Shown here one piece after another: positions 4,044 to 41,064 of a stretch of DNA of 64,000 bases (positions are counted from its first letter, which is position 1; each line of letters starts with the position of its first letter). The notes below the pieces were generated by a model. The model was not told the origin of the DNA. It did not search any database and saw only the letters and a list, made by a program, of their open reading frames with translations. Location: positions 7,424-71,423 of IMG/VR virus record IMGVR_UViG_2935901341_000001; one strand, 5' to 3'. The DNA comes from a virus. Position numbers and translations under genes: made by a program.

Positions 4044-4117
4044 TGGAGGCCTCGCCCGGAATTGAACCGGGGTACAAGGATTTGCAGTCCTCTGCGTCAC
4101 CACTCCGCCACGAGGCC
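4044..4117 (-). tRNA. tRNA-Cys (GCA), CCA encoded
   Basis: GGCCTCGTGGCGGAGTGGTGACGCAGAGGACTGCAAATCCTTGTACCCCGGTTCAATTCCGGGCGAGGCCTCCA folds as a cloverleaf with a GCA anticodon. Confidence 0.97.
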
Positions 4118-34020: not shown

Positions 34021-35883
34021 TCAGAATGTGTTTGCCATTGCCTCGTCGAGGGCGGCCATTTCGGCTGCGATCTTGGCCTCGAGCGCGTCGAGATCCTCTT
34101 CGCTATCCCAGACGGACTGTTCGCCGGTTTCGCCGAGGTCGGCGGCGCCGGCAAGCATCGCCAAGACCGTCATGCCGTCGATGCGGCCACGCTGGTGCTT
34201 CTTGATGAAGAACCGATTGTTCTGGGCGTCCGGCTGGATCGCCGCGTTGCCGGAGCACCACTTGGTGATCGGGCTTTCGTCGATAACAATCCGACGCTGC
34301 AGGATTCGATCCTCGAATTTCTGCAGCGACCGCGGCATCCAGAGCGCCTTCTTCGACTGCATGCCGAGGCGCCCCTGCCCGTGGATGATGATCTTCAGGC
34401 CAGAGCCGATCTCACCTTCCGGCTCCCAGACCCACGTTTCCAGGCCGACGTTGTCGCATGCCTTGCGGAAGTCGGTCAGGAACGCCGGGTCAACGACCAT
34501 CGCGGCGACGTTGCGCTGCGCGCGGACGCGCTGAATCAAAACGGCGATGAATTCGTATTCGATCGACCGGCCAGGTACCAGATTGAGGAGCGGCGGGATG
34601 GCCGCCGCCCACTCGACATACTGGGCGTGATCTTCTTCGGCCTTTTCCTTCAGCTTCTCAGCCGGCTTCCAATATTGCACCGCCGCGTGCAGAACGTCAT
34701 CGCTGTCCACCCAGCCGATGCCCAGCGCCGTTAAGTCGTTCTTTTTCGACAGATCGAGGCTGAGGAAAACGTCGGCGTCGTCGGCATCGGCGATATCGAC
34801 ACTGCCCTGCACCGCTTCCCAGAAATCGAGATCGATCCAGTATTCAGACGACCCGACCGGCACGCCGAAGTAAAGGCGCTCTGTGCTCAAGCGCATGCCG
34901 ACCGAGTTGCGGGCCGAGTTGACCTCGATCCTGACGTTCTCGACCGGGAACGTGATGCCGAGGCACGGCATCGATTTCTTCCAGCAGCTCTCGTCTTCGA
35001 ACGGCTTATCGTTCGGGTCGACGCGAGCGATGAAGGCGAACGCGGAATCGTCTACCGCCTCACCGCGCAGGATGCGCTGGTGGAGCTGGCTCCATTCCGT
35101 CGCGACCGGCTGATCCGCTGCCGGCGTGTTCGTCGACATCCACAGTAGGAAATCGCCCGGCATTTTGGCGCCGGCGGATTTCCATGTCTTCAGGGCGCCG
35201 TCCGATTTCCACTCGTGGATCTCATCGGCCGCCACATAGGACGGACGCGGGCCGTTGACCTTCTCGTCACCAGCGAGTGAGCGGAACTTCGATCCGCTCT
35301 CCGGATGCTCGAGCATCCAAATCATGTCGCCGGTTCCGCGCGTCAAAATCGTGCCGCGCGAGACGAGACTTTCGCCGTCGAACTCCGCCTCCGGCATTTC
35401 CGCCAGCGCCATCGCCGCAGCGTCGCCGAACAAGACGTTCGCCTGGTTCCGGTCCTTCGCGATCGCATAGCACTCAGCGCGCGGGATGCCTCGAAAGCCC
35501 ATCGTGTAGAGACCTAGCGCCGCGGCGACCGGCGATTTGATCTGGCCCTTTCCGGCTTCGATCCATGCCGTTCTGTACCGGAGACGGTTGCTGTCCTTTC
35601 GGTACCAGCCGTAGAGCGAGCCGACGACGAACGTCGTGTAGCTCGGCAGGTGGAACGGCTCTCCGGCCTTCGCTCCTGCTGTGACCGTGAGGCAAGACGG
35701 GAAAAAGCCCAGAGCTTTCCTGGCGGCTTCAGGCCGCCATTCAAGGCCGCGTTCGTGGCAGGTTTTCAGATCGTTCAGATGCCGCTGGCAAGCCAGTCGG
35801 CCGAAATGTCCGGACGTGACCCAACCGTCGACGACTTCCTGAGCCCAGAATGTGACGGGATCACTTGCTTCCAAGGTAGTCAT
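34021..35883 (-). CDS. terL: Terminase large subunit
   Basis: Walker A variant AGKGQIKS, Walker B AADEIHE, nuclease LDLSKKND and GRIDG. Confidence 0.95.
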   Translation of the reverse strand: MTTLEASDPVTFWAQEVVDGWVTSGHFGRLACQRHLNDLKTCHERGLEWRPEAARKALGFFPSCLTVTAGAKAGEPFHLPSYTTFVVGSLYGWYRKDSNRLRYRTAWIEAGKGQIKSPVAAALGLYTMGFRGIPRAECYAIAKDRNQANVLFGDAAAMALAEMPEAEFDGESLVSRGTILTRGTGDMIWMLEHPESGSKFRSLAGDEKVNGPRPSYVAADEIHEWKSDGALKTWKSAGAKMPGDFLLWMSTNTPAADQPVATEWSQLHQRILRGEAVDDSAFAFIARVDPNDKPFEDESCWKKSMPCLGITFPVENVRIEVNSARNSVGMRLSTERLYFGVPVGSSEYWIDLDFWEAVQGSVDIADADDADVFLSLDLSKKNDLTALGIGWVDSDDVLHAAVQYWKPAEKLKEKAEEDHAQYVEWAAAIPPLLNLVPGRSIEYEFIAVLIQRVRAQRNVAAMVVDPAFLTDFRKACDNVGLETWVWEPEGEIGSGLKIIIHGQGRLGMQSKKALWMPRSLQKFEDRILQRRIVIDESPITKWCSGNAAIQPDAQNNRFFIKKHQRGRIDGMTVLAMLAGAADLGETGEQSVWDSEEDLDALEAKIAAEMAALDEAMANTF

Positions 35884-36349
35884 CGGCGGCGCGCTTCTTC
35901 CTTCCGGATCTTGGCGGCGCCTTCTCGGCTCGGCCGCGCTCGGTCGGCGGGATGCCGAGTTCGCGCTCGGCGGCCATCACCCGCTTCATCGCGGCGTCGG
36001 CGATCGCCTTGTAGGGGTTGTGCATCATAACTTTCGTCTTCGGTGCTGGCGTCATGACGCCGTAGCGGGCGACGTGCGCCTCAGCCAATTTCCAGTCAGC
36101 GTAGGCGCCGGCCGCCATTTCGATCAGCACGTCATTGTCGACGTCCAAAAGCCCTTTTCGAGCAAGGCTTTGCGTGAGAGTCTTCCAGCGTTCGCTTGCG
36201 ATCTTCGCGCGACGCTTGCCCCATTCCTTCACGTTGATGGTCATAAGCCAGTTCGGCTCATCGATTTCGACGTCCGGCACTTCGGCGCCGGGGAACGGGC
36301 CCGGCACCACATTCGATGCCGGGGTAGGATTCGGTTTTCTGCCTCTCAT
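35861..36349 (-). CDS. terS: Terminase small subunit, P27 family
   Basis: MRGRKP...HNPYKAIA...ELGIPPTER. Confidence 0.9.
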   Translation of the reverse strand: MRGRKPNPTPASNVVPGPFPGAEVPDVEIDEPNWLMTINVKEWGKRRAKIASERWKTLTQSLARKGLLDVDNDVLIEMAAGAYADWKLAEAHVARYGVMTPAPKTKVMMHNPYKAIADAAMKRVMAAERELGIPPTERGRAEKAPPRSGRKKRAADDYLGSK

Positions 36350-36478
36350 GGGACTCAAGCTACTCGGCAGCAAGGCCGGCTATGGTTTATCGGAGTACAG
36401 GCTTTCCGAAGAGTATCTGTTGCGAGATCCTCGTCTGGCATGGTCTGTTACTTCGTCGTCAAAAAAGAGGAATCGACT

Positions 36479-37115: not shown

Positions 37116-37363
37116 CGGCGAGGCGGCGGCGCTCGATCTGGGTTTGGGTGGAGGTCTTGACCGATGACCACTGAAACGCGCTGGTTCACTTCAAGCGCTT
37201 CCGCTGCCCTATCCAAATCCGTTGCACGGGCGTCGAGCACGTTGGCCTTGCTGCTGTAAGAAGCAGCTTCAGCCAGCAGGGCTAACGCTGCGCCCCTGTT
37301 CTTGTCTGCAAGCTCGCGATCTGCGTTCGCCTGCTGGCGCAGATGGATAATCGCTTCGTTCAA
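37112..37363 (-). CDS. Small coiled-coil hypothetical protein
   Basis: TTG start with AGGAG RBS, coupled to the HNH gene. Confidence 0.6.
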   Translation of the reverse strand: MNEAIIHLRQQANADRELADKNRGAALALLAEAASYSSKANVLDARATDLDRAAEALEVNQRVSVVIGQDLHPNPDRAPPPRR

Positions 37364-37689
37364 GGCTTGCTCCTATGCCAAGGGTGGCGAGGGTCGAGGG
37401 GCGCACCGTCCACAGTGCAGCCTTGCACCACGACATTGCCACCACGTCGACGAGCTCCGCCGCGTTGCTCTTTCACCTGCCTGTCATGATGGCCGCAGAA
37501 TGTGCGCGTGTTGCCGATCACGTCTAGCGCCGTTGGATGATCCACATTCGGGCGGGTGACGATGTGGTCACAGACAAGGCGGTCAGTCCGACCACAGCCA
37601 GGCACAACGCAGCGCCAGCCGTCGCGCTCATGGGTGGCGCGCTTGAGCGCCTTCCAATGAGGGGAATCATAATACCGATTGCGGGCCAA
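37360..37689 (-). CDS. HNH endonuclease (packaging-associated)
   Basis: YDSPHWKALK...RDGWRC..C...DHI...GN...C..H; GC..DG.PLDP.HPW end; start estimated. Confidence 0.85.
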   Translation of the reverse strand: MARNRYYDSPHWKALKRATHERDGWRCVVPGCGRTDRLVCDHIVTRPNVDHPTALDVIGNTRTFCGHHDRQVKEQRGGARRRGGNVVVQGCTVDGAPLDPRHPWHRSKP

Positions 37690-37823
37690 TGGCAGCACCT
37701 GCGATATGTCCGCAAAACCCGGAACGATTGAAGAACAAAATTCCTGTTGGTTGCAAGCGGCTCGACATGTGCATAATGCGGCAGCAAGGCAGCACCAAAT
37801 TCCTTTTGGTGAAAGGTGCGCCA

Positions 37824-37945
37824 TGCAATCCGACAGTCTCACGATTTCCGTTCTCGGAATGAACGCCACAGCGAGCGGGCAATTCGCCATTGTCGCCCTG
37901 GTGGCGATATTCGCGACCGTGGCACTGCTGAGACTTCGGAAATGA
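37824..37945 (+). CDS. Possible 40-aa membrane peptide
   Basis: MQSDSLTISVLGMNATASGQFAIVALVAIFATVALLRLRK. Confidence 0.4.
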
Positions 37946-38105
37946 AAAGGCGGCCAACCCGGAAGGGCGACCGCCTGTCGATAGACGCAAATCAAGCATC
38001 CGCAGCGATATGACTCGTTAGCTCGATTTCTGTCAACACCCCCTGCTCAAGCTGAACGCCATCTTCAAGCCCTCAGCCTGTCACCGGATTACCTACCTCA
38101 AACCC

Positions 38106-38321
38106 TGTAGAGAGGCGCTTGATAGCGCCTCTACTAGGTTAAGATATAAATATTCCGCGCGTGCGTGCGCGAGGCCGGTGCCGATTTTCCGCGCTTTTTC
38201 CGCGATCCTTCCGCAGGTCGATTTCCACACCCCTTATAGAGTAATGCAACCGGCAGCGTGAAAAGCCGATTTTCCGCATTTCTTCCGCACATATTCCGCG
38301 ATCCTTCCGCGAAACTTCCGC
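38106..38321 (+). repeat. Hairpin + TATAAATATT + CG-alternating tract + 8 TTCCGC repeats in two 11-bp-phased arrays
   Basis: TTCCGC at 38187, 38198, 38209 and at 38272, 38283, 38294, 38305, 38316. Confidence 0.85.
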
Positions 38322-38572
38322 AGACGCGGGGCCGGAAAGCAGGCCGTGGTTCAACCTGCGATCATTCCCCAAAAAATATTTTCGAGATGCGGTGATTTGG
38401 GCAGCTGAACGGCCGGATGACGCCCGAAAACGCGCACCAGGGCGAATCACTTTCGCACCGTCAAAGCCGTAATGAATGCGGTTTTCCGAGCGTGGCGACG
38501 TCAAAACGAAAATTAAATCGGTTTCAAAACAAAGCCTTAGCGTTTTCGCATTCGATTTACGAGAAAACCGCA

Positions 38573-38600
38573 TTGCATAACGAAATGAATTCGATATTCT
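38573..38600 (+). promoter_or_regulatory. Probable early promoter for the 39.2-53.3 kb block
   Basis: TTGCAT-N16-TATTCT, the same 16-bp geometry as the PR- and PL-like promoters. Confidence 0.5.
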
Positions 38601-38606
38601 CCAAAT

Positions 38607-39190
38607 CACCGAAGCGAAAACGAAATCACTTCGGGATTGCGAGACGGCCTTTTCCTCCCGCAATGTTTTTTGAAAAGCTGGCGAACGGTCTGGTTATCAG
38701 CCGCAAGGTTTGGGCGACAAACTCGCGAAAGCGGGCAAAGCCTCGATTGAACGGAAGGTTTCCCGGCCCTCGCATATCAGCGTTATAGGGCGACCCAATG
38801 CTAAGGCATTACCGGCATGACAAAGCCGGGTTTGGGGAAGGACGCGCGACAAGCGGGAGGGTGCAAGCCCCTCATGCGGACTGAAATGACTTGTCTCTGT
38901 GAAGGTTCCGACCGAAGCGACCCTGATGCGAAGCGAAAGCCGAGTGTGTCAGATCATCGTTAGGCGGCGGGAAGATAGCAGGCAACCCAGATAACCGCGT
39001 TCGCAGACTGGGCAAGAGCTGCACCCCACAACCGATAACAGGCACGGGTTCCCCTAGCACAAGATCACAACGGAAAATCTGAAGGGCAAGCAACCACTTG
39101 CCCCTCTTGCCACATGCAAGGAAAGCGCCGCCGCAAGGCTGGCGCTTTCCCGGCATTTGGCCGTCAACCGCCCCTGCGCGAGGGGCTTTC
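38607..39190 (+). ncRNA. Large structured untranslated RNA / leader
   Basis: More than 10 consecutive hairpins, four with GNRA tetraloops; no convincing ORF. Confidence 0.55.
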
Positions 39191-39208
39191 AATCAGGAGA
39201 ATACGACA

Positions 39209-39811
39209 ATGGCACAGTTTGCAATCATCACCGGCAAGGCACTCAAGAACGCTATCGCTGGCCGCGGCGCTCAGATCGCCACGTTCACGCAGCGCGAGCA
39301 CCAGCTCGCCGTTTCGGCGCTGGCACACCTCGGCGAACACAACGACGTCATCTATGTCCAGGCGCTCTATGACATGAGCCCGGCCAACTACCAGCGCGGA
39401 CTGCGCCTGTGGTTCCTCGAATTCGGCAAGTGCACGTTCAAGGCCAACGAATCCGGCAAGGGTGGCGTGTTCATCTATGCCAAGAGCAAGGCCAGCGATG
39501 TCGAGGGCGCGATGAAGGTCGCACCGGCGAATTTCGAGAAGGAAGCCAAGGAGTCGACCACGGAAGCCAAGGCTTTCAGCGTCACCGACTATCTCGCCAA
39601 GGTCGTCGAGAAGCTGATGAAGGAAGGCGCCGACGTGCGTGTCATCCGCGCCATCGAAGGTGCGCAGAAGGTCGCCGCTGGCCCGGTCGTGGTCGTCCGC
39701 AACCAGAAGCCCCTGCCGACGGCGGCCGAAAAGAAGGCCGCAGCGCCGAAGAAGGCCGCCAAGAAGGCCGATCCGATGCAGGCACCTGCCGCCAACGGCA
39801 TCGCCGCCTAA
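39209..39811 (+). CDS. Early phage protein resembling conserved early ORFs of lytic podoviruses; Lys/Ala-rich tail
   Basis: AGGAG RBS; AIAGRG...HQLAVSAL.HLGEHND...L.LWF..FG pattern recalled from PHA01782-like proteins (not searched). Confidence 0.65.
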   Translation: MAQFAIITGKALKNAIAGRGAQIATFTQREHQLAVSALAHLGEHNDVIYVQALYDMSPANYQRGLRLWFLEFGKCTFKANESGKGGVFIYAKSKASDVEGAMKVAPANFEKEAKESTTEAKAFSVTDYLAKVVEKLMKEGADVRVIRAIEGAQKVAAGPVVVVRNQKPLPTAAEKKAAAPKKAAKKADPMQAPAANGIAA

Positions 39812-40126: not shown

Positions 40127-40156
40127 GCAAGCCCGGCCATCGTGCCGGGCTTTTGC
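40127..40156 (+). terminator. Intrinsic terminator in the early block
   Basis: GCCCGGC-CATCGT-GCCGGGC-TTTT. Confidence 0.65.
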
Positions 40157-40182: not shown

Positions 40183-41064
40183 ATGAATATGATCTATGCC
40201 CCGAATACGGCCCGCTTCGACCACACGGCGCGCGCGATGACCGAAGACGAGATGCGCCGCGTTGCGCCGTCCATCTTCGCGGTCGAGGCTCACGAAAGCC
40301 GCTCCGAGCGGTTCCAGCCCATCCCCACGATTGAAGTACTCCGCGGCCTCATGCGCGAAGGCTTTATGCCAGTTGGCGCACGGCAGGCACGCACTCGTGA
40401 CGAAGGCCGAAAGGATTTCACTAAGCATATGATCAGAATGCGGCGCCTCGACGATGGCAAGGATTACAGCGTCGGCGACACTGTATTCGAGATCATTCTG
40501 AAGAACGCCAACGACGGTACGGCCGCCTATGACCTCATGGCGGGCCTCTTCCGCATCGTCTGCAAGAATTCGCTGGTCAGCCAGACCGGCACCTTGGACA
40601 GCTTGAAGGTGCGCCACAGCGGCACCCCTGAAGGCGTCCAAGGGAAAGTGATCGAAGGCACCTACGAAGTGCTGCGCAATGCCGAGGCGGCGCTTGCCGC
40701 GCCCTCCGACTGGAGCGGCCTGCAGCTCGACAAGGACGAAAAAATGATTCTTGCCGAAGCCGCGCATGTGCTTCGGTTTGACGATCAGGATGGCAACCTT
40801 GCGAAAGCGATTGATCCGGCGCGGTTCCTGACAACGAAGCGCGTAGCCGATCGCGGAAACGATCTCTGGACCCAGTTCAACGTCGTCCAGGAAAACGTCA
40901 TTCGCGGTGGTCTGCACGGCACCGTGAGTGACGATCAGGGCCGCCGCCGCAACGTTTCCACGCGCGCTGTCAAAGGCATTGACCAAGACGTCAAGCTCAA
41001 CAAAGCGCTCTGGCTGGTCGCAAGCCGTATGGCCGAGCTCAAGGGCGTAGCAGCCGACGCCTGA
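40183..41064 (+). CDS. DUF932/DUF945 family protein
   Basis: HESRSERFQPIPT, FTKHMIR, NANDGTAAY, GLFRIVCKN, DLWTQFNVVQEN, IDQDVKLNKALW. Confidence 0.9.
   Translation: MNMIYAPNTARFDHTARAMTEDEMRRVAPSIFAVEAHESRSERFQPIPTIEVLRGLMREGFMPVGARQARTRDEGRKDFTKHMIRMRRLDDGKDYSVGDTVFEIILKNANDGTAAYDLMAGLFRIVCKNSLVSQTGTLDSLKVRHSGTPEGVQGKVIEGTYEVLRNAEAALAAPSDWSGLQLDKDEKMILAEAAHVLRFDDQDGNLAKAIDPARFLTTKRVADRGNDLWTQFNVVQENVIRGGLHGTVSDDQGRRRNVSTRAVKGIDQDVKLNKALWLVASRMAELKGVAADA

Follow-up and report, generated by a model that had tools for sequence, protein, structure and literature searches.

The rightward gene block of this phage is separated from the leftward block by a gap of 1.2-1.5 kb that contains no genes, and the question raised by the locus is what is encoded by the last 600 or so bases of that gap, which form the leader of the rightward operon. 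The window, i.e. the whole 64-kb stretch of DNA that was analysed, is part of an 80,884-base virus record, and its proteins resemble those of Rhizobium leguminosarum and related prophages. The leftward structural block includes TerL (34021-35883) and TerS (35861-36373), and an ORF on the - strand (37360-37995) encodes an HNH domain in its C-terminal half. The HNH family match is confined to residues ~105-211 of this ORF; the true HNH gene is probably shorter than the ORF, in which case the gene-free gap may start near 37,700. The rightward block begins with the ATG at 39209 and encodes a 200-aa protein, a 78-aa protein and, third, a DUF932 protein (40183-41064), with a HerA-like ATPase, a methylase-like protein, a DnaN-like clamp and a ParB-like protein later in the block. 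The first gene (39209-39811) belongs to phrog_1448, a PHROG family without functional annotation, and a Pfam search with its product came back empty. The AF2 model of this product (pLDDT 67) has no informative structural match in PDB or AFDB, just a weak winged-helix resemblance. A helical and beta-hairpin core of moderate confidence and a disordered tail rich in Lys, Ala and Pro can be discerned in the model. N-like features and Arg-richness are absent from this protein; the earlier remark, in an initial annotation made from the sequence, that no N-like gene is evident holds for this first downstream gene.

Sequence comparison indicates that the approximately 600 gene-free bases encode a conserved, intricately folded RNA. 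No conserved ORF is present at positions 38605-39208, where stops occur in all three + frames, and alignment of each homolog with the leader requires 5-11 indel runs with lengths that are not multiples of 3. Gene callers left 1.2-2 kb empty upstream of the homologous gene in every contig that was fetched, and the initial annotation's impression that the leader lacks a convincing ORF is upheld on all of these counts. The minimum free energy of the leader (584 nt) is -228.8 kcal/mol, compared with -207.2 +/- 6.4 kcal/mol for dinucleotide shuffles (z -3.37), none of 100 shuffles being its equal; the reverse strand of the leader folds equally well (z -3.87). At gathering thresholds, the sole Rfam match in the whole window is a tRNA at 4047-4117, and a search of positions 37800-39400 at E<=10 produced just chance-level matches to miRNAs and frameshift elements. 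BLAST of a phage collection with the leader matched nothing, and the exact leader motif is absent from a metagenome collection. Mimicry of rRNA was considered and rejected: a blastn comparison with the host rrn leader and 16S rRNA yielded nothing above 10-11-mers.

The leader is kept in about 23 related phages and prophages of Rhizobiaceae. A close set of 15 distinct leaders, gathered via the downstream protein, has 73-87% DNA identity, and the 5' third and 3' quarter are conserved throughout this set. In place of the middle (Domain II, below), 4 of the 15 (L007, L004, L023 and L024) have another sequence, of similar length. Covariation was counted on the RNAalifold structure of the 11 'type-1' leaders only, which has 157 pairs (93.3% of cells paired). 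Changes on both sides were found at 26 of these pairs, as against 12.5 +/- 2.2 in column shuffles (0 of 500 reaching the observed count), and the control of sliding the partners by 1-3 columns gave 0-10 both-side changes. Both the better-than-shuffled folding and the covariation among homologs that the initial annotation had named as tests are thus in evidence, and its notion of an undescribed structured RNA at the head of the operon agrees with a leader that is conserved, covarying and negative in Rfam. Replaced Domain II (2570-2850 in L007 and its equivalents in L004, L023 and L024, at approximately 38790-39050 of the window) is GC-rich and hairpin-dense, and is not detected by the type-1 nhmmer model; a few of its short blocks (GUGAAGAUAC, GGAGCGAAGACAAAGC) resemble type-1 Domain II, and it represents either a module swap or extreme divergence.

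Domain II was found upstream of the same gene in more distant phages, with 42-56% protein identity, by an nhmmer search with an HMM of the middle domain (E 5e-25 to 2e-5; L013, L009, L041, L046, L005, L011, L010, L012 and partly L033). In Domains I and II, MAFFT does not align the distant members reliably, and the pair counts do not apply to the whole family. A scan of IMG/VR with the pattern CAACCGN{2,3}ACAGGCANGGG returned 22 loci, among which the new members were just L041 and L046; a scan with ATAGGGCRACC..GACAAARCC returned known members and four chance matches in coding DNA. Among 400 genomes of the host's order, the same leader motif was found only in the known prophage and in one likely chance match. 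A truncated copy of the leader (window 38722-38906, from the middle of Domain I to the middle of Domain II; 85-89% identity) was noted in nine megaplasmids of R. leguminosarum and R. ruizarguesonis (L066 3001-3181, CP050563.1), in unannotated DNA adjoining an IS66 element. Since its breakpoints are within helices, this copy probably represents a remnant of phage DNA.

The strand is not fixed by structure alone: the reverse complement has nearly the same RNAalifold energy and number of compensatory pairs. The asymmetry of G-U versus A-C pairs was rejected as a decisive strand test because the reverse-complement control scores almost as high. Read from the other strand, the loops of Domain I become UUUC, UCAC or CGAA, which are outside the stable tetraloop classes. 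The + strand is favoured by the conserved promoter, boxA, Shine-Dalgarno sequence (SD) and downstream gene, and by the tetraloop classes. The layout on this strand is a promoter, two hairpins, boxA, Domain I, Domain II, a terminator-like hairpin and a pre-SD hairpin (see the table).

Table. Features of the leader and of the start of the rightward operon (window coordinates)
Feature	Position	Strand	Details
Promoter, sigma70-type, TTGCAT-N16-TATTCT	38573-38600	+	Hexamers kept in 15 close leaders
Hairpin P1, CCGAAG / CUUCGG, A-rich 14-nt loop	38609-38634	+	Invariant in 14 of 15 close leaders
Hairpin P2, boxB-like in rrn order	38636-38664	+	Sequence variable; ends 0-1 nt 5' of boxA
boxA-like element UGUUUUUUGAAAA	38664-38676	+	Family consensus GGUUCUUUGAAAA; directly after P2
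Domain I, about 108 nt	38677-38784	+	Enclosing helices GCUGGCGA / UCGC..CAGC; helices 4-8
Domain I, central hairpin			GGUU 38707-10; GGGC 38712-15 / GCCU 38740-43; CUCGC-GAAA-GCGGG 38722-35; GAUUG 38745-49
Domain II, 190-390 nt across the family	38785-39050	+	Conserved core, variable peripheral stems; helices 10-17
Domain II, blocks of first part			AUAGGGCGACC; Pa 38797-38810; Pb 38812-38829, loop AUGACAAA
Domain II, helices			CCC 38794-96 / GGG 38835-37; H13 38848-53 / 38890-95
Domain II, end			Variable stem ~38900-38985; CCCAG 38986-90 / CUGGG 39008-12; then CAACCGAUAACAGGCACGGG
A/C-rich strand AUCACAACGGAAAAUCUGAAGGGC, then hairpin GGGCAAG / CUUGCCC (39084-39103)	39063-39103	+	Invariant in 15 leaders
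Long hairpin GGAAAGCGCC..GGCGCUUUCC	39120-39150	+	Variable loop; GCAA in this phage only
Pre-SD hairpin GCCCCU-GCGCG-AGGGGC (39170-86) and SD AGGAG (39195-99)	39170-39199	+	Helix 24; ATG at 39209
Intrinsic-terminator-like hairpin after second gene	40129-40152	+	9 bp, 7 GC; tail TTTTGCGTTT

Promoter-like hexamers occupy the same place in all relatives, including L024, in which the promoter sequence differs, and the distant members have cTTGnn-N17-TATyTT at this position. The transcription start predicted in the initial annotation is in keeping with this conserved promoter, and is likely at about 38605-38608. The promoter spacer holds a palindrome, CGAAATGAATTCG. Conserved inverted repeats with AAAACCG..CGGTTTT half-sites were noted at positions 38440-38600, in addition to the palindrome in the spacer, and distant relatives have other palindromes in the same spacer. 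These inverted repeats look like repressor operators, and the leader promoter is probably repressor-controlled. Near-invariance of P1 among the close leaders makes a covariation test of this hairpin impossible; distant members also have a first hairpin at its position, and P1 could also be a DNA operator palindrome. P2 (helix 2) has compensatory changes at three pairs. A hairpin of -8 to -18 kcal/mol lies directly 5' of boxA in 22 leaders, and alignment indicates the same for L001.

boxA is the most conserved linear motif in the 5' part of the leader. The host rrn boxA was read after the 16S genes had been located in two genomes that carry related prophages: both rrn leaders have a hairpin and then UGUUAUUUGACAA (L057) or GGUUUUUUGACAA (L058), the stretch after the hairpin reading UGUUAUUUGACAAUUGAA or GGUUUUUUGACAAUUGAA. 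The boxA of the phage leader agrees with the host rrn boxA at 11-12 of 13 positions, and a hairpin is immediately 5' of boxA, i.e. in rrn order, in this leader as in both host rrn leaders. The pattern GTTNTTTGAMAA, derived from the host rrn boxA, has one exact match in the 64-kb window (38665-38676, + strand; 0.02 expected) and no second exact copy in the 80.9-kb genome. Exact matches are present at the same relative place in the close leaders and in L009, L041 and L046; the remaining distant members have versions with at most two mismatches (GGUUAUUUGACAG, GUUCUUUUGACAA, GGUUCAUUGAAAU and others), always 3' of a GC hairpin. The -35 and -10 hexamers are ~60 nt upstream of boxA, and boxA precedes Domain II by 110-160 nt throughout the family, including the members with 42-50% identity of the neighbouring protein. 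Being invariant, boxA offers no covariation test. Directly after it there is no conserved GU-rich box, GUGUGU occurring solely inside a variable stem of Domain II. From its sequence and place, boxA appears to be a copy of the host-type rrn antitermination signal near the 5' end of the leader.

The central hairpin of Domain I has one topology in 23 leaders, with 20 distinct sequence versions; its loop is GAAA, GUGA, GCAA, UUCG or CUUG in 20 of the 23, and ACUC or UUAA in the other three. In Domain II, the CCC/GGG helix has changed to CGC/GCG independently in L003 and L041, H13 has at least 8 sequence versions, and the stem at 38986-39012 is retained in L008 as CCCUG/CAGGG. The hairpin after Domain II has a U-tail and a terminator-like look in distant members (L009, L041, L011 and L033), and its tail is U-poor in this phage (CUCUUGCC). 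The invariant strand around CACAAGAUCACAACGGAAAAUCUGAA is rich in C and poor in G (C/G about 1.7 at 39022-39100), and is predicted to be unpaired; in these respects it is like a Rho-utilisation site between Domain II and the next hairpin. The long hairpin that follows (helix 23) has four compensatory pairs, e.g. AAGCGCC/GGCGCUU versus AAUCGCC/GGCGAUU, and in distant members the SD is preceded, at a distance of 12-15 nt, by a hairpin of 4 bp that covaries (GCCA/UGGC, GGCA/UGCC or CGCA/UGCG). One or two small ORFs lie between the RNA and the phrog_1448 gene in L011, L010, L012, L041 and L046. With these ORFs and a hairpin with U-tail in distant members, the RNA is tied to the beginning of the operon and not to a particular gene.

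Direct reading and RNAalifold recovered most of the stems that had been listed in the initial annotation, namely P1, P2, Pa, Pb, the stem at 38986-39012, the hairpins at 39084-39103 and 39170-39186, and the stem around 39133 (as the hairpin 39120-39150); the stem listed at 39106-39120 is not conserved. The GNRA loops fared unevenly: GAAA at 38727 stands, and among the type-1 leaders with the stem at 38863, the loop is nearly always G(C/A)AA, with an ambiguous closing pair, but the loop at 38703 is CCAA in most homologs and the one at 39133 belongs to a variable loop. As for the terminators that had been assumed within the operon, the terminator-like hairpin after the second gene is conserved (an equivalent is present at L031 3428-3449), but terminator-like sites in the operon block are no commoner than in shuffles (12 versus 9.2 +/- 3.4).

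The explanation that we prefer, with a probability of roughly 55%, is that the leader is an rrn-type, Nus-factor-dependent antitermination leader. A 5' untranslated leader of ~600 nt would be transcribed from the promoter of the rightward operon, and ~60 nt into the transcript two hairpins would be followed by a linear boxA, to which NusB-NusE of the host would bind. With NusA, NusG and SuhB/S4, RNA polymerase would be converted to an rrn-like, termination-resistant complex capable of crossing 0.55 kb of untranslated, Rho-exposed RNA into the operon. The modified polymerase might also pass the terminator-like hairpins at 39084-39103 in the leader and 40129-40152 in the operon, the latter being a candidate target of read-through. 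In rrn sites, boxB precedes boxA, the reverse of lambda nut, and antitermination is mainly boxA-dependent (PMC8632103); boxA acts outside rRNA too (PMC5725501), and NusB-NusE has a double-stranded RNA site contiguous with boxA (PMC3177189). The antitermination role suggested in the initial annotation has gained a concrete signal in the host-type boxA after a hairpin, whereas transcription, Nus binding and read-through are inferred. This boxA points to host Nus factors instead of a factor-independent mechanism like that of put. Several considerations count against the antitermination reading: terminator-like sites in the block are at shuffle level, the strand is not settled by structure, boxA is too invariant for a covariation test, rrn-type complexes act mainly on Rho and less on intrinsic terminators, and a pyrimidine-rich boxA is naturally complementary to the SD. 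In addition, a boxA site needs ~15-50 nt, so that the antitermination reading leaves ~450 nt of conserved RNA unexplained. Domains I and II have a conserved core exceeding what a boxA site alone would need; they might act, like put, to reinforce the modified polymerase, or else form a folded product that profits from the rrn-type chaperone complex.

This surplus of conserved RNA is where the antitermination leader has its most serious competition. A stand-alone, trans-acting, 'ornate' phage ncRNA of ~450 nt (boxA, Domain I and Domain II) could have its 3' end at the hairpin near 39103, formed by termination or processing, with boxA serving just for the synthesis and folding of the RNA, a role that it has for rRNA and CRISPR arrays too, and with the real job of the RNA elsewhere, e.g. 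in host takeover or anti-defence. We entertain this proposal tentatively, as rather unlikely. A conserved core with variable peripheral stems, such that Domain II varies from 190 to 390 nt, is the usual pattern of a functional RNA, and the U-tail in distant members, the small ORFs that part the RNA from the phrog_1448 gene, and the replacement of Domain II in four phages by another sequence of similar size are all compatible with a separate transcript; but in every case the RNA heads the same operon and has the same orientation, its hairpin has a U-poor tail in this phage, the conserved RNA runs on to the SD, and neither a trans target nor a processing site is known. A related proposal, which we think doubtful, is that Domains I and II are an undescribed, ornate RNA of ~450 nt with a function beyond cis antitermination that borrows the rrn complex via boxA, for example as the first product of an incoming or induced phage to act on the host (anti-defence, takeover), or by reprogramming RNA polymerase itself.

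The predicted pairing of boxA with the SD suggests another role, that of a translational or attenuation riboregulator, in which the leader would respond to a protein, a ligand or Nus factors and thereby control the SD or the leader terminator. In the RNAalifold structure, UUCUUUGA in the boxA region pairs with UCAGGAGAA at the SD, closing the whole leader, and this long-range helix is predicted in both alignments (helix 3, 94.8% paired); a hairpin is always 12-15 nt 5' of the SD, and boxA with Nus factors represses translation of suhB (PMC5725501). We judge this role improbable, considering that the helix has hardly varied on either strand and shows no compensatory changes, that its two strands are more than 500 nt apart, that any U/C-rich boxA complements a purine-rich SD by composition, and that a different SD is the nearest one wherever ORFs are inserted. 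It is far less probable that the element functions as DNA (cos or pac, a replication origin or an operator array), with hairpins that are palindromes for protein binding. The region adjoins HNH and terminase genes, P1 and the promoter spacer are palindromic, and the two strands fold equally well, as such an element would have it; yet compensatory and G-U changes keep the helices and not the sequence, the loops of Domain I are in stable RNA tetraloop classes on the + strand only, boxA, the SD and the promoter all read in the same direction, and the repeat arrays are upstream (38100-38570), outside the leader.

In this lineage of temperate Rhizobiaceae phages, then, what appears to be the host's own rrn-type boxA heads an operon with no N-like gene directly downstream, and is joined to a large RNA fold, conserved but without an Rfam entry. 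If the antitermination mechanism is true, N-independent hijacking of the Nus machinery by phages extends to the Alphaproteobacteria, and a defined RNA of ~450 nt, with a ready alignment of about 23 sequences, has a function that can be tested.

Among known systems, GOLLD and ROOL are similar to the leader in size class (about 600 nt), in being phage-borne and in having multiple domains, but the leader is found in alphaproteobacterial phages, as an operon leader with boxA and SD that does not adjoin tRNAs, and the kinship with GOLLD or ROOL that had been raised in the initial annotation is not borne out by Rfam, even at E<=10. HK022 put is also a cis-acting RNA just downstream of an early promoter, its factor-independent double hairpin of ~65 nt being comparable with the P1+P2 double hairpin of 56 nt at the 5' end of the leader, which likewise has no N-like gene directly downstream. 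The leader is about 9 times longer than put RNAs, and put is not known to require boxA or Nus factors. In common with lambda and phi80 nut sites, which act with N, the leader has boxA soon after a putatively repressor-controlled early promoter; unlike lambda nut, it has a hairpin and then boxA, not boxA and then boxB. A lambda-type nut/N module was rejected: the hairpin is on the wrong side of boxA and its sequence is variable, so that it is not a specific N-binding boxB, the loop of the Domain I hairpin varies as well, and the 200-aa product of the first gene is not N-like. The annotated pL leader of phi80 (~410 nt) has the layout of the rhizobial leader, a hairpin and then boxA ~60 nt after pL, and nhmmer found no homology between the two leaders. 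In phi80 (L067, JX871397, 8792-9207, - strand), the hairpin is GGCGGACAGCAAGUCGCC and boxA is UGCUUUUUAACAA, and ~350 nt of purine-rich structured RNA lie between boxA and N.

The closest resemblance is to the rrn leader site (boxB hairpin, boxA and boxC, with NusB/E/A/G, SuhB and S4), which has the same order of hairpin and boxA, boxA being close to the start of a transcript that is long, structured and untranslated. The leader differs in that it belongs to a phage operon, ahead of protein genes, in that no boxC was recognised in it, and in that its boxA is followed by ~450 nt of conserved RNA dissimilar to the rrn leader and 16S rRNA; in sequence and layout, it nevertheless corresponds to what would be expected of an rrn-type boxA site. 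Stringer et al. in 2020 reportedly found boxA upstream of CRISPR arrays and other untranslated RNAs, and there too a long untranslated transcript would be shielded from Rho by the boxA with which it starts, although the RNA after boxA in the phage leader is a conserved fold rather than a repeat array. rRNA operons and lambdoid coliphages are the established cases of boxA-dependent antitermination, and the conserved structured leader RNA of the rhizobial phages, with its host-type boxA, appears to be a variation on this known boxA/Nus theme.
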